NCBI RefSeq assembly: GCF_054482595.1
Contig: NZ_CM137008.1
Length of the DNA stretch: 64,000 nt
Strand: one strand, 5' to 3'
Shown here: piece after piece, positions 10,125 through 64,000 of the stretch
How the letters are laid out: each line of letters begins with the position of its first letter
Numbering within the stretch: position 1 is the first letter of the stretch
Program-made: the position numbers and the translations under genes
Notes under the pieces: generated by a model
Told to the model about the DNA's origin: nothing
Databases searched by the model: none
What the model saw: only the letters and a program-made list of their open reading frames with translations

Positions 10125-11852
10125 TTAGCAGATTGTTTTTTCTTCAATGAACTTGTTAACCAGCGTCATTAACTCGTCCGTTGTCGGTTGAGCAAGAGCC
10201 TGCTCTGCTAACACCTTCGCATCTTCGAAGTTCGTGTTACGGATAATCTTCTTAATGCGCGGGATAGAAATGGCGCTCATAGAGAATTCGTCCAGACCCA
10301 TCCCCAGCAACAGAAGTGTAGCACGTTCATCGCCAGCAAGCTCACCACACATGCCAGTCCATTTGCCTTCAGCATGAGAAGCATCAATAACTTGCTTGAT
10401 CAAGTTCAGCACGGACGGTGACATTGGCTGGTAAAGGTGTGAAATCATATCATTACCACGGTCAACTGCCAGAGTGTACTGCGTTAAATCATTGGTGCCG
10501 ATACTAAAGAAATCAACTTCTTTGGCTAAATGACGTGCAATTGTTGCGGCAGCCGGTGTTTCCACCATTACGCCGATTTCAATTGACTCGTCAAACGCTT
10601 TACCTTCGTCGCGCAGTTCCTGTTTGTAGATTTCGATCTCTTTGCGCAGTGCACGCACTTCTTCAACAGAGATGATCATCGGGAACATAATGCGCAATTT
10701 ACCGAAAGCCGAGGCACGCAGGATAGCGCGGAGCTGATCGCGCAGGATCTCTTTACGATCCATCGCGATACGGATAGCGCGCCAGCCGAGGAACGGGTTC
10801 TCTTCTTTCGGGAAGTTCATGTATGGCAGCTCTTTGTCGCCGCCGATGTCCATGGTACGAACGATAACCGCCTGCGAGCCACACGCTTCAGCCACTGCTT
10901 TGTAAGCAGCAAACTGTTCTTCTTCAGTGGGCAGCGCGTCGCGGTCCATGAACAGGAACTCAGTACGATACAGACCAACGCCTTCAGCGCCGTTACGCTC
11001 TGCACCTTCAACGTCACGAACCGTACCAATGTTAGCGCATACTTCTACCTGGTGACCGTCCAGCGTAATAGCTGGCAGATCTTTCAGTTTAGCAAGCTCT
11101 GCTTTTTCAGAAGCCACTTGCTCCTGAACAGCGCGCATTTTATCAATAACTTCGTTGGTTGGATTGACGTAAACCTGATTATTTACGGCATCCAGAATCA
11201 GATAGTCGTCATTTTTCACCTGAGAGGTGACGCTACCGGTACCCACGATAGCAGGCAGTTCCAGAGAACGCGCCATGATAGAGGTGTGGGAAGTACGGCC
11301 ACCCGCGTCGGTGATGAAACCCAGCACCTTCTTCAGGTTCAGCTGTGCGGTTTCGGACGGCGTCAGGTCAGCGGCAACCAGAATGACTTCATCCTGAATG
11401 GCGCTCAGGTCGATAATCTTCAGGCCCAGGATGTTGCGCAGCAGGCGCTTACCGATATCACGTACGTCAGCCGCACGTTCTTTCAGGTATTCATCATCCA
11501 GCTCTTCCAGGGCAGAAGCCTGACCTTCGATAACTTCATGAGCAGCTGCGTCAGCTGTCATGTGTTTATCTTTAATCAGGGCTATGATTTCCTGCTCCAG
11601 CTCCTCATCTTCGAGCAGCATAATATGCCCTTCAAAGATGGCTTCTTTTTCTTCACCGAACGTTTCACCAGCTTTCGTTTTGATCGTTTCCAGCTGGGCT
11701 GATGCCTTGGCACGACCGCTCAGAAAACGTTCAACTTCCTGATCAACCTGGTCGGCAGAAATTTTTTTCCGGTCAATGACAATTTCGTCTTCTTTCAGAA
11801 GCAGAGCTTTACCGAAAGCGATACCCGGGGATGCTAAAATGCCTGAAATCAT
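10125..11852 (-). CDS. ptsI: PTS phosphoenolpyruvate-protein phosphotransferase (Enzyme I)
   Basis: 575 aa; matches Enzyme I. Confidence 0.97.
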
Positions 11853-11896
11853 AACCCTACCTTACTTGTGACTGATTTTTAAAAGAACCCGGGAAA

Positions 11897-12154
11897 TTAC
11901 TCGAGTTCCGCCATCAGTTTAACCAGATGTTCAACCGCTTTCTGCTCGTCTTCGCCTTCTGCGGAGATAGTCACAACGGTACCTTGAGTCAGGCCCAGAG
12001 TCTGCAGTTTAAACAGGCTTTTCGCGCTGGCGCTTTTGCCGTTGGAAGTCACAGTAATTTCAGAAGTGAAGCCCTTAGCTTCTTTTACAAACTGGGCAGC
12101 AGGGCGGGTGTGCAGACCGTTCGGAGCGGTAATGGTAACTTCTTGCTGGAACAT
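11897..12154 (-). CDS. ptsH: PTS phosphocarrier protein HPr
   Basis: 85 aa [22 protein letters not shown]..., active-site His15 context. Confidence 0.97.
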
Positions 12155-12486
12155 TGTATTTCCCCAACTTATAGGTTTAGTGTTGTGGAACTAAAGTCTA
12201 GCCTGGCGGTTCGACTTTAGCCTGTATTGTTAGCGCCAGTTTTTAACAGACGCGACGCACGAAGAGCGCAATACAGTCCATTGCTGGCGGGTGTTGACCG
12301 CTGACGTTTCGTACGTCATTAAACATTATGCCGCTAAAGGAAGAATTGAACCAAATCATAAAATCGATTCAGCTTTGGCTTTTCCTGTAACGATTAATTT
12401 CGCGCATCAAAATAATTAGTCTGGTTAAATACCAGTTCCGACAGGCTGAATCAATGCCAGGAGGGGCGAAAGTTTGAAGCAGGCCA

Positions 12487-12515
12487 CAAAAAAGCACCTA
12501 AAAAGGTGCTTTTTT
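12487..12515. terminator. Intrinsic terminator downstream of cysK (bidirectional hairpin)
   Basis: aaaaaagcacc-taaaaa-ggtgctttttt. Confidence 0.75.
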
Positions 12516-12537
12516 ACGCATTTTTAACAAGCTGGCA

Positions 12538-13509
12538 TTACTGTTGCAATTCTTTCTCAGTGAAGAGATCGGCAAACAATGCGGTGCTTAAATAACGCTC
12601 ACCCGATGATGGTAGAATAACCACAATATTCTTGTTGGTAAAGCTTTCATCTTCTTGTAGTTTCAACGCCGCGGCAACAGCTGCTCCAGAAGAGATACCT
12701 GCAAGAATACCTTCTTCTTCCATTAGACGACGGGCGGTAGAAATGGCTTCTTCATTGGTGATGCCAATGACTTTATCGACCAGCTTGAGATCGAGGTTAG
12801 CCGGGATAAAACCAGCGCCAATACCCTGAATTTTATGCGGGCCAGGTTTAATCTCTTCACCTGCCAGCGCCTGGGCGATAACTGGAGAATCGGTTGGCTC
12901 AACGGCGACAGAGATAAGATCGGTCTTACCTTTGGTGCCTTTAATGTAGCGGCTGACGCCAGTCAGCGTACCGCCAGTCCCAACGCCAGCAATAAATACA
13001 TCAACCTGACCGTCGGTATCTTCCCAGATCTCCGGACCGGTGGTTTTTTCGTGAATTTCAGGGTTTGCCGGATTGCTGAATTGTTGCAGCAGCAGGTATT
13101 TCTCTGGATTGCTGGCGACAATTTCTTCTGCTTTTTGGATTGCGCCTTTCATGCCTTTAGCACCTTCGGTCAGCACCAGGTTTGCACCTAACGCTTTCAG
13201 CAGCTTGCGGCGTTCAATACTCATGGTTTCTGGCATGGTCAGGGTGAGTTTGTAACCGCGAGCGGCAGCTACATAGGCCAGTGCAATCCCGGTATTACCG
13301 CTGGTCGGTTCAACCAGTTCAACGCCTGGTTTCAGCACGCCGCGCTTTTCGGCATCCCAAATCATGTTGGCACCGATACGGCACTTAACGCTGAAGCTGG
13401 GGTTACGAGATTCCACCTTCGCCAGAATGCGTCCGTTACCGATGCGATTCAGGCGAACCAGCGGCGTGTGACCGATAGTCAGCGAGTTATCTTCAAAAAT
13501 CTTACTCAT
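12538..13509 (-). CDS. cysK: Cysteine synthase A (O-acetylserine sulfhydrylase A)
   Basis: 323 aa; matches CysK. Confidence 0.97.
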
Positions 13510-14455: not shown

Positions 14456-14684
14456 AATCAGGATGAGCTCCTTTTGACCAATCCCAGGAAAATTGTGCGT
14501 ATTTTACCGGGTAATTGCGCAATGGACAGTTAGGATATGTTCGAAAAAACAGCAAAAAGCACGATTTCATCTATCTTTGTGCTGTGAAAGTTAATAGTGC
14601 ACTTGCACTTGAGGTAATCGGCAAATACTCTTAGTGAGTAAATGTTTGCCGTGGTGGCAAGGTGTTAGAACAACAGAGAATATA

Positions 14685-19073: not shown

Positions 19074-20000
19074 ATGAATTATTCTTTAAAACAATTAAAG
19101 GTTTTCGTCACAGTAGCGCAGGAGAAAAGTTTTAGTCGTGCAGGAGAGCGTATCGGCCTGAGCCAGTCGGCAGTAAGTCACAGTGTGAAGGAGCTGGAAA
19201 ATCATACTGGTGTTCGCCTGCTGGACAGAACCACGCGTGAAGTGGTGCTTACAGATGCAGGGCAGCAGTTGGCTTTGCGTCTTGAGCGACTGCTGGATGA
19301 ACTTAACAGCACGTTGCGCGATACCGGGCGTATGGGGCAACAACTGAGCGGAAAAGTTCGGGTCGCTGCCAGCCAGACCATTTCCGCGCATCTTATTCCG
19401 CAATGCATTGCTGAAAGCCATCGCCGCTATCCAGATATTCAGTTTGTCCTGCACGATCGTCCGCAGCAGTGGGTGATGGAAAGTATTCGCCAGGGAGATG
19501 TCGACTTTGGCATCGTCATCGATCCAGGCCCAGTGGGCGATCTGCAATGTGAAGCGATTCTTTCCGAGCCTTTCTTTCTGCTTTGCCATCGGGATAGCGC
19601 TTTGGCCGCGGAAGATTATGTACCCTGGCAGGCATTACAGGGAGCGAAATTGGTGTTGCAGGATTACGCGTCAGGCAGCCGACCGCTGATTGACGCAGCG
19701 CTGGCGCGCAATGGTATTCAGGCGAATATTGTGCAGGAGATTGGACATCCGGCGACGCTATTCCCGATGGTAGCCGCAGGCATCGGCATCAGTATTCTTC
19801 CCGCACTGGCGCTACCATTGCCTGAAGGTAGCCCGCTGGTGGTAAAGCGCATTACGCCGGTTGTTGAACGCCAGTTGATGCTGGTGCGCAGGAAGAACCG
19901 TTCACTTTCCACCGCCGCTGAAGCGTTATGGGACGTGGTACGAGACCAGGGCAATGCGCTAATGGCTGGGCGGGAAGGGGATCCGTTGTATCAGATATAG
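19074..20000 (+). CDS. yfeR: LysR-family transcriptional regulator
   Basis: 308 aa; N-terminal HTH ([32 protein letters not shown]); divergent from yfeH. Confidence 0.9.
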
Positions 20001-23704: not shown

Positions 23705-23780
<76 letters not shown>

Positions 23781-23819
23781 AATTTTGCACCCAGCAAATT
23801 TGGTACGTAAACGCATCGT

Positions 23820-23895
<76 letters not shown>

Positions 23896-23904
23896 AATTT
23901 CCAA

Positions 23905-57244: not shown

Positions 57245-58408
57245 GTGGAACAGATTAATTCAAATAAAAAACATTCTAACAGAAGAAAATACTTTTCTTT
57301 ATTGGCGGTAGTTTTATTTATTGCGTTTTCAGGTGCCTATGCCTATTGGTCAATGGAATTAGAAGACATGATTAGTACAGATGACGCCTATGTCACGGGG
57401 AATGCAGATCCAATTTCTGCACAAGTCTCAGGTAGTGTCACTGTCGTTAATCATAAAGATACGAACTACGTTCGACAAGGTGACATTTTAGTTTCACTGG
57501 ATAAAACTGATGCCACTATCGCACTCAATAAAGCTAAAAATAATCTGGCAAATATTGTTCGGCAAACGAATAAACTGTACTTACAGGATAAACAATACAG
57601 TGCCGAAGTCGCTTCAGCACGTATTCAGTATCAACAATCTTTAGAAGATTATAACCGTCGTGTGCCTTTAGCGAAGCAGGGGGTTATTTCAAAAGAAACG
57701 CTGGAGCATACCAAAGATACGTTAATAAGTAGCAAAGCGGCATTGAATGCCGCTATCCAGGCTTATAAAGCGAATAAAGCTTTAGTAATGAACACACCAT
57801 TAAACCGTCAGCCACAAGTCGTGGAAGCGGCGGATGCAACCAAAGAAGCCTGGTTGGCGCTTAAACGTACGGATATTAAGAGTCCGGTTACCGGCTATAT
57901 TGCCCAGAGAAGTGTTCAGGTCGGCGAAACAGTGAGCCCCGGACAATCGTTAATGGCTGTCGTACCGGCACGTCAAATGTGGGTTAATGCCAACTTTAAA
58001 GAAACACAACTCACGGATGTACGGATTGGTCAATCGGTCAATATTATCAGCGATCTTTATGGTGAAAATGTTGTGTTTCATGGTCGGGTGACAGGGATCA
58101 ATATGGGAACCGGCAATGCGTTCTCCTTATTACCTGCACAAAATGCGACAGGGAACTGGATCAAAATCGTTCAGCGTGTACCGGTTGAAGTTTCTCTTGA
58201 TCCAAAAGAACTCATGGAACACCCCTTGCGCATTGGTTTATCGATGACTGCAACTATTGATACGAAGGACGAAGACATTGCTGAGATGCCTGATCTGGCT
58301 TCAACCGTGACCTCCATGCCTGCTTATACCAGTAAGGCTTTAGTTATCGATACCAGTCCGATAGAAAAAGAAATTAGCAACATTATTTCGCATAATGGAC
58401 AACTTTAA
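57245..58408 (+). CDS. emrK: Multidrug efflux membrane fusion protein (EmrA paralogue)
   Basis: 387 aa; N-terminal TM anchor then coiled-coil/HlyD fold; matches EmrK. Confidence 0.93.
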   Translation: MEQINSNKKHSNRRKYFSLLAVVLFIAFSGAYAYWSMELEDMISTDDAYVTGNADPISAQVSGSVTVVNHKDTNYVRQGDILVSLDKTDATIALNKAKNNLANIVRQTNKLYLQDKQYSAEVASARIQYQQSLEDYNRRVPLAKQGVISKETLEHTKDTLISSKAALNAAIQAYKANKALVMNTPLNRQPQVVEAADATKEAWLALKRTDIKSPVTGYIAQRSVQVGETVSPGQSLMAVVPARQMWVNANFKETQLTDVRIGQSVNIISDLYGENVVFHGRVTGINMGTGNAFSLLPAQNATGNWIKIVQRVPVEVSLDPKELMEHPLRIGLSMTATIDTKDEDIAEMPDLASTVTSMPAYTSKALVIDTSPIEKEISNIISHNGQL

Positions 58409-60053: not shown

Positions 60054-61382
60054 TTAACGGCCTTTTGCCAGATATTGATTCATCTCTTCTTCCGGCACCA
60101 TTCCACCTCCCGTCGCCCACACCAGATGAGTGGTATTACGCAGTTGTTCTGCGCTGAAACCGTGCATCTGTTGGTAACTTACTGATGCACACACGCGCTG
60201 AGGTCCGGTCATACCCGCCAGTGCCGAAGGTTCAAGACGAATACCTTCTTCCTGCGCCAGCCAGCCAAGCATGTCATACATGGTTTGATCGCTAAGGGTA
60301 TAGAAGCCATCCAGCAGACGCTCCATTGCCCGCCCGACAAAGCCTGATGCGCGACCAACTGCAAGGCCATCCGCTGCGGTAAGGTTGTCGATACCAATAT
60401 CCTGAACAGAAATCTGATCGTGTAATCCTGTATGGATGCCTAACAGCATACAAGGGGAGTGCGTTGGTTCGGCAAAAAAGCAGTGAACATGATCGCCAAA
60501 CGCCAGTTTAAGTCCGAATGCGACGCCACCAGGACCACCGCCAACACCACACGGCAGATAGACAAACAGAGGGTTATCAGCATCGACGATACGGCCTTGC
60601 TGGGCAAATTGCGCTTTAAGACGCTGGCCAGCGACGGAATACCCAAGGAACAACGTGCGGGAATTTTCGTCATCAATAAAGAAACAGTTCGGGTCAGACT
60701 GCGCTGCTTTACGTCCTTCCTCGACGGCAACACCATAATCTTGCTCATATTCCACGACCGTAACGCCATGGCTGCGCAGTTTCGCTTTTTTCCATGCCCG
60801 GGCATCAGCAGACATATGCACTGTCACCTTAAAGCCAATGCGGGCGCTCATAATGCCGATTGATAACCCCAGATTTCCGGTTGAGCCCACAGCAATGCTG
60901 TATTGGCTAAAGAACTGTTTAAACTCCGGAGAAAGCAGTTTGCTGTAGTCATCATCAAGCGTCAGCAACCCCGCTTCCAGAGCCAGTTTTTCTGCGTGTG
61001 CCAGAACTTCATAAATCCCGCCGCGTGCTTTTATGGAGCCGGAAATGGGCAAATGGCTATCTTTTTTCAGTAACAGTTGCCCGCTGATCGGTTGTTGATA
61101 TTCCTTTTCCAGCCGTTTTTGCATAGCCGGAATGGCAACCAGTTCTGATTCAATAATCCCCCCAGTAGCAGCAGTTTCAGGAAATGCTTTTGCCAGATAG
61201 GGTGCAAAACGGGATAAGCGCGCATGGGCGTCCTGAACATCCTGTTCGGTCAGGCCAACATAAGGTAAACCTTCAGCCAATGAGGTCGTGCCAGGATTAA
61301 ACCAGGTGGTTTCTTTAAGAGCAACCAGATCCTTTACCAACGGATACTGGGCGATGAGCGAGTTCATTTTAGCGTTTTCCAT
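60054..61382 (-). CDS. dsdA: D-serine dehydratase (PLP-dependent)
   Basis: 442 aa; PLP lysine context SGSIKARGG; matches DsdA. Confidence 0.95.
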
Positions 61383-61399
61383 AGTACGTCTCTTTGCGC

Positions 61400-61630
61400 T
61401 TAGATGATAAATGACAGCAGGAATGTGCCCGCCAGAGCGACGACTGAAGCGATAAATGTCGCTGTCGTATAGTATTTAAATGTTTCATTGAGCGTAGCGC
61501 CGCAATATTGCTTCACCAGCCAGAAAAGCGAGTCCGTAACGATCGTGCAGCCAATTGCGCCTGAACCGATAGCAATCGCAATAATTTCCGGGCTGATGTC
61601 GGGATACAGCGGCAGCACAATGATCCATAT
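61400..61630 (-). pseudogene. dsdX: 5'-truncated remnant of D-serine permease dsdX (GntP family), C-terminal ~75 codons only
   Basis: Minus-strand frame reads ...[76 protein letters not shown] then stop 17 nt upstream of dsdA; frame closes with a stop at 61631..61633, and unrelated sequence follows; a full dsdX would be ~445 codons. Confidence 0.7.
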
Positions 61631-61848
61631 TTATATTTTCTTCTCCAGGTTGGCGATGCCAGTTGGCATGTTTTTCTTACTTGCCTATATGGTTACTCGT
61701 TGGCGAGAACAGAGGCGGAATTGGGGACAATTGGCCGGGAATTATTGTTATTTTTTATTGTATTGCCGTGTCAGGTGATAGGGCGTTGGATCTCGCCAGT
61801 GACGTCTGTTTCTGCTACAGTGCCCGTTTTACGACAAACGGCTTGGGT

Positions 61849-62844
61849 ATGGCTTCATTAAAGGATGTCGCACGCCTGGCGGGAGTGTCGATGATGACAG
61901 TCTCCCGGGTGATGCATAATGCAGAATCTGTGCGTCCTGCAACGCGTGACCGCGTATTGCAGGCAATCCAGACCCTGAATTATGTTCCTGATCTTTCCGC
62001 CCGTAAGATGCGCGCTCAAGGACGTAAGCCGTCGACTCTCGCCGTGCTGGCGCAGGACACTGCTACCACTCCTTTCTCTGTTGATATTCTGCTTGCCATT
62101 GAGCAAACCGCCAGCGAGTTCGGCTGGAATAGTTTTTTAATCAATATTTTTTCTGAAGATGACGCTGCCCGCGCGGCACGTCAGCTGCTTGCTCACCGTC
62201 CGGATGGCATTATCTATACTACAATGGGGCTGCGACATATCACGCTGCCTGAGTCTCTGTATGGTGAAAATATTGTATTGGCGAACTGTGTGGCGGATGA
62301 CCCAGCGTTACCCAGTTATATCCCTGATGATTACACTGCACAATATGAATCAACACAGCATTTGCTCGCGGCGGGCTATCGTCAACCGTTATGCTTCTGG
62401 CTACCGGAAAGTGCGTTGGCAACAGGGTATCGTCGGCAGGGATTTGAGCAGGCCTGGCGTGATGCTGGACGAGATCTGGCTGAGGTGAAACAATTTCACA
62501 TGGCAACAGGTGATGATCACTACACCGATCTCGCAAGTTTACTCAATGACCACTTCAAATCGGGCAAACCAGATTTTGATGTTCTGATATGTGGTAACGA
62601 TCGCGCAGCCTTTGTGGCTTATCAGGTTCTCCTGGCGAAGGGGGTACGTATCCCGCAGGATGTCGCCGTAATGGGCTTTGATAATCTGGTTGGCGTCGGG
62701 CATCTGTTTTTACCGCCGCTGACCACAATTCAGCTTCCACATGACATTATCGGGCGGGAAGCTGCATTGCATATTATTGAAGGTCGTGAAGGGGGAAGTG
62801 TGACGCGGATCCCTTGCCCGCTGTTGATCCGTTGTTCCACCTGA
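61849..62844 (+). CDS. cscR: LacI-family sucrose operon repressor
   Basis: 331 aa from internal ATG at 61849 (MASLKDVARLAGVSMMTVSRVMHN..., LacI HTH) plus periplasmic-binding-like sugar domain; matches CscR. Confidence 0.88.
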   Translation: MASLKDVARLAGVSMMTVSRVMHNAESVRPATRDRVLQAIQTLNYVPDLSARKMRAQGRKPSTLAVLAQDTATTPFSVDILLAIEQTASEFGWNSFLINIFSEDDAARAARQLLAHRPDGIIYTTMGLRHITLPESLYGENIVLANCVADDPALPSYIPDDYTAQYESTQHLLAAGYRQPLCFWLPESALATGYRRQGFEQAWRDAGRDLAEVKQFHMATGDDHYTDLASLLNDHFKSGKPDFDVLICGNDRAAFVAYQVLLAKGVRIPQDVAVMGFDNLVGVGHLFLPPLTTIQLPHDIIGREAALHIIEGREGGSVTRIPCPLLIRCST

Positions 62845-62851
62845 TATTATG

Positions 62852-64000
62852 CTAACCCAGTTGCCAGAGTGCTCCATGTTGCACCACAGCCACTCCGTGG
62901 GAGGCATAAAGCGACAGTTCCCGTTCTTCTGGCTGCGGATAGATTCGACTACTCATCACCGCTTCCCCGTCGTTAATAAATACTTCCACGGATGATGTAT
63001 CGATAAATATCCTTAGGGCGAGCGTCTCACCCTGCGGGAGGAGAATACTACGGTAGCCGTCTAAATTCTCGTGTGGGTAATACCGCCACAAAACAAGTCG
63101 CTCAGATTGGTTATCAATATACAGCCGCATTCCAGTGCCGAGCTGTAATCCGTAATGTTCGGCATCACTGTTCTTCAGCGCCCACTGCAACTGAATCTCA
63201 ACTGCTTGCGCGTTTTCCTGCAAAACATATTTATTGCTGATTGTGCGGGGAGAGATAGATTGATGCTGCTGGCGTAACGACTCAGCTTCGTGTACCGGGC
63301 GTTGTAGGAGTTTGCCATTGCTCTCTGATAGCTCACGCGCCAGCGTCATGCAGCCTGCCCAGCCTTCACGTTTTGAGGGCATTGGCGATTCCCACATATC
63401 CATCCAGCCGATAACAATACGCCGACCATCCTTCGCTAAAAAGCTTTGTGGTGCATAAAAGTCATGCCCGTTATCAAGTTCAGTAAAATGCCCGGATTGT
63501 GCAAAAAGTCGTCCTGGCGACCACATTCCGGGTATTACGCCACTTTGAAAGCGATTTCGATAACTGTATCCCTCGGCATTCATTCCCTGCGGGGAAAACA
63601 TCAGATAATGCTGATCGCCAAGGCTGAAAAAGTCCGGACATTCCCACATATAGCTTTCACCCGCATCAGCGTGGGCCAGTACGCGATCGAAAGTCCATTC
63701 ACGTAATGAACTGCCGCGATAAAGCAGGATCTGCCCCGTGTTGCCTGGGTCTTTCGCCCCGACTACCATCCACCATGAGTCGGCTTCACGCCACACTTTA
63801 GGATCGCGGAAGTGCATGATTCCTTCTGGTGGAGTGAGGATCACACCCTGTTTCTCGAAATGAATACCATCCCGACTGGTAGCCAGACATTGTACTTCGC
63901 GAATTGCATCGTCATTACCTGCACCATCGAGCCAGACGTGTCCGGTGTAGATAAGTGAGAGGACACCATTGTCATCGACAGCACTACCTGAAAAACACCC
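62852..64000 (-). CDS. cscA: Sucrose-6-phosphate hydrolase / invertase (GH32), C-terminal part; N-terminus beyond window end
   Basis: Frame open from window edge to stop at 62852; GH32 motifs FRDPKV and WECPD; edge translation ...DGCFSGSAVDDNGVLSLIYTGHVW... matches CscA. Confidence 0.88.
   Translation of the reverse strand, partial: GCFSGSAVDDNGVLSLIYTGHVWLDGAGNDDAIREVQCLATSRDGIHFEKQGVILTPPEGIMHFRDPKVWREADSWWMVVGAKDPGNTGQILLYRGSSLREWTFDRVLAHADAGESYMWECPDFFSLGDQHYLMFSPQGMNAEGYSYRNRFQSGVIPGMWSPGRLFAQSGHFTELDNGHDFYAPQSFLAKDGRRIVIGWMDMWESPMPSKREGWAGCMTLARELSESNGKLLQRPVHEAESLRQQHQSISPRTISNKYVLQENAQAVEIQLQWALKNSDAEHYGLQLGTGMRLYIDNQSERLVLWRYYPHENLDGYRSILLPQGETLALRIFIDTSSVEVFINDGEAVMSSRIYPQPEERELSLYASHGVAVVQHGALWQLG

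Follow-up and report, generated by a model that had tools for sequence, protein, structure and literature searches.

A csc sucrose locus in place of dsdC and most of dsdX, joined at a base-exact breakpoint to the dsdA side of the argW-dsdA interval

In Escherichia coli, the csc genes for sucrose and the dsd genes for D-serine for the most part exclude each other, csc being frequent in phylogroups B1, D and E (PMC11251922). According to the cited literature, nearly all EHEC and LEE-positive strains are of the csc type and sensitive to D-serine, whereas UPEC strains are dsdCXA-type; in EHEC, the cited papers describe both the sensitivity to D-serine and repression of the LEE type 3 secretion system. 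The locus is typed by a routine triplex PCR with dsdA, dsdX and cscR primers (PMC13054288), and the arrangement and its consequences have already been described (PMC7486766, PMC4366372, PMC3032704, PMC11251922, PMC13054288). The exchange of dsdCX for csc is a textbook metabolic trade-off at a recombination hotspot, in which a strain has either sucrose use or D-serine use, and it has been linked to niche choice. All five reports go back to two papers, Jahreis et al. 2002 and Moritz & Welch 2006, and the published descriptions of the arrangement and its consequences include Connolly 2015 and O'Boyle 2020.

The stretch of DNA analysed here (the window, 64,000 nucleotides) ends on its right in what is almost certainly the leftmost part of the csc locus on the chromosome (non-PTS sucrose catabolism), in its standard position between argW and dsdA. 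This placement follows from the identities of CscR and CscA, from colinearity with the genome of E. coli XH990, and from a junction shared with other genomes. The features concerned are:

60054..61382, minus strand: dsdA, D-serine ammonia-lyase (deaminase), 442 amino acids, intact (open reading frame with TIGR02035 and NF002823)
61400..61617, minus strand: dsdX remnant (pseudogene), the last 72 of 445 codons plus the stop codon (NF007395 and tblastn)
Between 61617 and 61618, no strand: breakpoint, ACAGCGGCAGCA joined to CAATGATCC (end of K-12 homology)
61618..61848, plus strand: non-coding csc-side spacer, 231 bp, presumed cscR promoter (alignment)
61849..62844, plus strand: cscR, LacI-family repressor of the csc regulon, 331 amino acids, intact (Pfam domains)
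62852..>64000, minus strand: cscA, cytoplasmic GH32 sucrose hydrolase (invertase), codons 96-477 plus the stop codon (scrB_fam)

A blastn search of the whole window with the K-12 dsdA-dsdX-dsdC segment returned a single match, 60054..61617, at 99.2% identity. The DsdA protein encoded there differs from that of K-12 at 2 amino acids and matches the equivalog model TIGR02035 with 814 bits (cut-off 368) and NF002823 with 776 bits (cut-off 246); emrY adjoins the gene, as it does in K-12. Separated from dsdA by 17 bp, and on the same strand, is the dsdX remnant, which aligns with positions 374-445 of the 445 in the DsdX equivalog NF007395; tblastn with K-12 DsdX likewise aligned residues 374-445, with 98.6% identity. 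Comparison with K-12 shows that dsdX codons 1-373 and the dsdX-dsdC control region are missing. Of a DsdX/GntP-family permease that is about 445 amino acids at full length, residues 374-445 alone remain, and dsdX' is a pseudogene remnant and not a transporter. A first-pass annotation of this DNA had estimated that the last 75 or so codons of dsdX survive; the truncation stands, and the number of codons is 72. Searches with K-12 DsdX and dsdCX found no second dsdX anywhere in the 64-kb window. Neither is dsdC present in the whole 64 kb, where the sole DsdC match is the LysR paralogue yfeR (about 19080..19586), which is 28% identical to DsdC. The dsdA gene is orphaned, having neither its activator DsdC nor the dsdXA promoter.

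The point at which the two kinds of DNA meet can be placed to the base. By blastn and megablast, homology with K-12 runs through base 61617, and the csc side starts with 61618. In a direct alignment with K-12 DH1, identity extends up to ...ACAGCGGCAGCA and collapses thereafter, and in a megablast search of 5,426 complete E. coli genomes the match of dsdCXA-type genomes, K-12 DH1 among them, stops at 61617. The base change at 61618 converts the internal Met374 codon of dsdX from ATG to GTG, which accounts for the GTG-started ORF of 72 amino acids at 61400..61618 in the mechanical ORF list. The abrupt switch to unrelated DNA that had been noticed in the sequence is therefore real, with K-12 homology ending at 61617 and the csc locus beginning at 61618, and the range of 61616..61635 originally given for the breakpoint does contain the exact join.

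To the right of the spacer, CscR has the composition of a LacI-type repressor, with an N-terminal helix-turn-helix (Pfam LacI, residues 3-48, E 2e-21) followed by a sugar-binding domain (Peripla_BP_1, residues 61-329, E 2e-92). The cscR product of XH990 is WP_001301925.1, an accession that it has in common with an O157:H7 genome. On the opposite strand is cscA, the stop codons of the two convergent genes being 7 bp apart. The cscA stop codon is at 62852..62854 and the frame is open for 382 codons to the end of the window, with the first 95 codons lying outside; the fragment corresponds to residues 96-477 of the XH990 protein. It scores 353.6 bits against scrB_fam (GH32), and the full-length XH990 CscA scores 477.5 bits (cut-off 356.4). 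The catalytic motifs RDP (160) and EC (215) are inside the fragment. The nucleophile motif WMNDPNG (36) is beyond the window and is seen only in the full-length XH990 CscA, so that the complete set WMNDPNG/RDP/EC, in a GH32 protein encoded convergently with cscR, is found with WMNDPNG taken from XH990. The nearest solved structure to CscA is 7vco (E 2e-174). The NCBIfam label on CscA, 'sucrose-6-phosphate hydrolase', is the name of the family and does not denote the substrate. In genome OHT76-1, RefSeq names the csc orthologues 'sucrose operon repressor CscR', 'sucrose hydrolase', 'fructokinase' and 'sucrose MFS transporter'. The first-pass identification of a LacI-type repressor gene convergent with a GH32 invertase gene that runs off the window agrees with the Pfam and scrB_fam matches, with the frame still open at 64000 and with 100% DNA identity of cscR to XH990; the caveat attached to it, that the two ORFs might fail to match Csc proteins, is removed by the RefSeq names of the orthologues.

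What lies beyond the window can be read from E. coli XH990 (NZ_CP019359.1). This genome is colinear with the window, with 5 mismatches in the first 50 kb, 1 mismatch and 1 single-base indel in the last 11.7 kb, and 100% identity over 61300..64000. Its gene order continues with the 5′ end of cscA (477 amino acids in total), a divergent control region of 215 bp, cscK, cscB, a 153-bp DUF4942 remnant, argW (tRNA-Arg) and yfdC. The XH990 CscK matches a fructokinase equivalog with 505.7 bits (cut-off 450), and CscB matches an oligosaccharide MFS model with 592.8 bits. Given the near-identity of the two genomes, we infer that cscK, cscB and argW follow in the window strain too. With dsdA intact and adjoining emrY, dsdX truncated, dsdC absent and csc genes extending to argW, the region has the organization of a csc-type argW-dsdCXA island (Moritz & Welch 2006). 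In XH990, the palindrome TGTTAACGTTAAC occurs twice in the cscA-cscK spacer, at a distance of 64 bp (12017-12033 and 12081-12097 of the XH990 segment); these positions would fall about 315-395 bp to the right of the window end. According to the summary in PMC11251922, Jahreis et al. reported two palindromic CscR operators, which the XH990 palindromes appear to fit.

With the functions assigned to these proteins in the cited literature, CscB would import sucrose with a proton, CscA would hydrolyse it in the cytoplasm, and CscK would phosphorylate the fructose. CscR would repress the divergent cscA and cscKB promoters through the two palindromic operators in the cscA-cscK spacer. On the other side of the junction, dsdA would be transcriptionally near-silent, because it has neither DsdC nor the dsdXA promoter. 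The phenotype predicted for the strain is therefore slow use of sucrose, together with no use or detoxification of D-serine because of the near-silence expected of dsdA.

The spacer between the breakpoint and cscR has few recognizable features. Alignment shows that 12 bp, CGTCGAGAATTT, present in O157:H7 and A24, are missing between 61783 and 61784, which puts the deletion in the window lineage about 65 bp before the start codon of cscR. A promoter scan of the 231 bp found no consensus sigma-70 site. There is no significant hairpin in the spacer, the one at 61648-61669 being no better than shuffles (z -1.5) and partly deleted in A24. No site resembling a CscR operator occurs above chance in the spacer, near dsdA or anywhere else in the window, in agreement with the report that CscR has no direct action on dsdA (PMC7486766). 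The exact spacer 23-mer ACTCGTTGGCGAGAACAGAGGCG had 0 matches in a genome contig scan for donor context.

The csc genes had initially been regarded as an accessory insertion that also removed dsdC and most of dsdX. The loss is as described; 'replacement', from the 3′ end of argW to dsdX codon 373, is nevertheless a more exact term than 'insertion' in light of the comparison on the argW side. When the argW region of XH990 is set against that of K-12, K-12 homology resumes exactly at the argW 3′ end. From dsdX codon 374 to argW, the window lineage, as seen in XH990, has 5,557 bp (spacer, cscR, cscA, cscK, cscB and remnant), and the equivalent interval in K-12 is about 12.6 kb, made up of the CPS-53 prophage, torI, dsdC and the 5′ 1.1 kb of dsdX. 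A search between the junction and argW for att-like direct repeats of the 3′ end of argW, and for IS or inverted-repeat scars, found none, the only repeats there being the putative CscR operators and short chance pairs. There is also no compositional break, the csc genes having about 50% G+C like their flanks.

The frequency of the arrangement was determined in a database of 5426 complete E. coli genomes. An earlier count at a coverage of at least 80% was inadequate for the junction, because the csc part alone made up 88% of that query; we therefore used a junction-centred query of 200 bp, for which 80% coverage is reachable only by spanning the junction. The junction was spanned in 2669 of the 5426 genomes, and the non-spanning, dsdCX-type genomes matched bases 1-100 of the query only. 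The cscR-cscA pair was present at a coverage of at least 80% in 2662 genomes, and the K-12 segment with the 5′ part of dsdX and dsdC in 2698. Hence 49% of complete genomes are csc-type and 50% dsdCX-type: the two configurations are nearly equal in frequency in E. coli, and nearly all csc loci are at the same junction. It had been proposed from the sequence that csc is strain-variable in E. coli and that K-12 lacks it; the counts bear out the former and the K-12 genome comparison the latter.

Ten csc-type genomes, spread evenly down the identity ranking, were fetched for inspection (O157:H7 Z1766, A24, EC31, STEC367, 537-20, ETEC1747, EC195, OHT76-1, CUVET16-394 and S1-ZIM-01-A), giving 11 lineages with the window; XH990 shows the same features. 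A 219-bp dsdX pseudogene, annotated as 'incomplete; missing N-terminus', is found in all 11. The junction string, ACAGCGGCAGCA followed by CAATGATCC, is also the same in all 11, save for one SNP on the dsdX side in S1-ZIM-01-A. The dsdA gene of A24 has diverged (dS about 0.23), yet this genome has the same junction string. Some csc-type genomes have broken csc genes, an example being the internal stop codon in cscB of EC195.

There are several ways in which such a junction might be explained. An abrupt switch of this kind might in principle be produced by a chimeric assembly, with a true genome that has full dsdCXA at the site, and the first-pass annotation had itself raised the prospect of a full-length dsdX elsewhere. 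Apart from the abruptness nothing speaks for this, and its probability is negligible: the identical junction occurs in one aligned piece in 2669 independent complete genomes, which rules out an assembly artefact, RefSeq annotates the same 219-bp pseudogene in 11 of 11 genomes inspected, and the 64 kb hold no further dsdX or dsdC. It is also very improbable that csc entered the argW hotspot repeatedly and independently, truncating dsdX on each occasion. The argW region is a recognised hotspot for recombination and prophage integration (PMC4366372, PMC11251922), and the argW-proximal side is indeed variable, O157:H7 having extra genes between cscB and argW; the dsdX-side junction, however, is the same to the base in 11 evenly sampled lineages, and about as many genomes span it (2669) as have cscR-cscA (2662). 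A single ancestral event is by a wide margin the best reading, because illegitimate events that were independent of one another would not fall on the same base again. One illegitimate recombination would have joined DNA upstream of cscR to dsdX codon 374 and in the same step eliminated dsdC together with dsdX codons 1-373. The junction would since have been inherited vertically, and probably also moved by homologous recombination of its flanks, into about half of E. coli.

A separate question is whether the orphan dsdA is silent, as reported, or retained for use. Its reading frame is full-length in 11 of 11 csc-type genomes, the protein is identical to that of K-12 in 4 of the 11, and mean pairwise pN/pS is 0.07, or 0.11 without A24. 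The pattern resembles ongoing purifying selection, on a gene that is described as silent in this context. The low ratio, from 11 genomes, could be explained just as well by exchange of alleles with strains of the dsdCXA type or by ancestral polymorphism that the lineages still share. We consider it unlikely that dsdA is still expressed, from a promoter in the 3′ end of dsdX or by read-through from cscA, at a level that gives selectable low-level detoxification of D-serine. The geometry would allow it, with cscA, the dsdX remnant and dsdA co-oriented on the minus strand and cscR antisense between them; a simple scan of that strand from the cscA stop codon to the dsdX remnant found no terminator-like site, and the 115 bp upstream of dsdA, in which its promoter is said to lie (PMC7486766), are identical to K-12. 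Wild-type EHEC with the csc arrangement are nevertheless D-serine sensitive and do not grow on D-serine, and dsdA is activated there only when deletions take out cscR and place cscAp or z3622p nearer to it (PMC7486766, PMC4366372). The fuller proposal, that dsdA is kept by selection and usefully expressed through a dsdX 3′-end promoter or through sucrose-dependent read-through from cscA across the antisense cscR, seems rather improbable to us. If it did hold, detoxification of D-serine would be coupled to the csc locus, and the 12-bp deletion upstream of cscR could shift the balance of expression. A near-silent dsdA is the reading on which the predicted phenotype is based.

The exchange of dsdCX for csc is thus real, common and already explained, and it is already known; for the window it follows that the strain is typed as csc-type, and no new biology follows. 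The modest additions are a base-exact breakpoint, the presence of one junction in about 49% of complete genomes, and an intact orphan dsdA with a low pN/pS.

Finally, we note how the locus compares with described systems. The plasmid- or transposon-borne scr regulon (scrKYABR) is alike in sucrose use and in having a GH32 hydrolase, a fructokinase and a LacI-type repressor, but differs in PTS uptake, in the hydrolysis of sucrose-6-phosphate and in location; plasmid GH32 matches reached only about 72% identity over 24% of the query. With dsdCXA of K-12 and UPEC CFT073, the window has in common dsdA and the final 72 dsdX codons, which lie beside emrY and show 99.2% identity to K-12, whereas it is without dsdC, the control region and dsdX codons 1-373, so that both activator and transporter are gone. 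The csc regulon (cscRAKB) of EC3132, W and O157:H7 EDL933 (Bockmann et al. 1992; Jahreis 2002; Moritz & Welch 2006) is alike in genes, order and orientation: dsdA, dsdX', cscR convergent with cscA, then cscK and cscB toward argW, as in the window and XH990 taken together. The same loss of dsdC and the 5′ part of dsdX is found there, with a junction identical to the base. From the csc locus of O157:H7 the window differs only in allelic detail, being without the 12 bp upstream of cscR, and its lineage, as seen in XH990, has a short cscB-argW interval with the DUF4942 remnant only, where that of O157:H7 is longer.

The dsdA gene has stayed intact next to the acquired csc DNA, and was compared across the csc-type genomes:

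window 60054..61382: dsdA, set against its counterparts in ten other csc-type genomes (loci L004, L005 and L007-L014)

Its reading frame is full length in all 11 genomes, the window included, and in four of them the encoded protein is identical to DsdA of K-12. The mean pairwise pN/pS of the gene among the 11 is low (0.07-0.11), despite the loss of the activator DsdC from csc-type genomes. The dsdA gene of EHEC has been reported to be silent.

Upstream of cscR, the csc side of the junction carries one element resembling a terminator:

61648..61669, + strand: terminator-like hairpin (ATGCCAGTTGGCAT, then a T-run)

The hairpin lies 30 bp from the junction and is oriented toward cscR, and it might represent the end of a gene that formerly preceded cscR in the donor. 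In a shuffled-sequence comparison it was no better than the shuffles (z -1.5), and strain A24 has lost 13 bp of it. A second variable site is found at 61783/61784, about 65 bp 5′ of the cscR ATG (61849), where the window is missing 12 bp (CGTCGAGAATTT, with a CGT repeat flanking). The divergent strain A24 and O157:H7 Z1766 both carry these 12 bp; the short form seen in the window lineage occurs in 4 of the 15 full-length rows in an evenly spread sample of the megablast ranking of complete E. coli genomes.

Four deposited genomes named as Escherichia phages, each of 43-47 kb (ON470594.1, ON470608.1, ON470622.1 and ON470589.1), have cscA at the end of the record, and one of the four also contains cscR and the junction with the dsdX remnant. 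This arrangement suggests argW-region prophages with adjoining host DNA included, either in the record or by packaging, and it fits the "four coliphage genomes" remarked on in PMC11251922.

Three further features lie elsewhere in the window:

57245..58408, + strand: emrK, an intact ORF of 387 codons
20409..21005: tRNA cluster of three tRNA-Val, tRNA-Lys and an RtT-like sRNA repeat
23705..23900: tandem tRNA-Ala pair, with 81-bp exact repeats

The two tRNA loci are ordinary core-genome features of the region. In XH990, the nearest genome, the poly-A run at window position 58373 is one A shorter and emrK is annotated as frameshifted; the discrepancy is either genuine or due to missequencing of the homopolymer in XH990.

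In the csc-type strain EC195, cscB is annotated as a pseudogene with an internal stop; carriage of the csc locus is therefore no guarantee of a sucrose-positive phenotype. Beyond the window, a short remnant of a DUF4942-domain ORF lies between cscB and argW, the tRNA-Arg gene bounding the segment, in all three of the following genomes:

14515..14667, XH990 locus
11527..12671, O157:H7 locus
11514..11720, A24 locus

O157:H7 differs in having a recombinase-family gene and further ORFs in the same interval. The csc segment thus varies on the side nearest argW, whereas its junction with dsdX is fixed.
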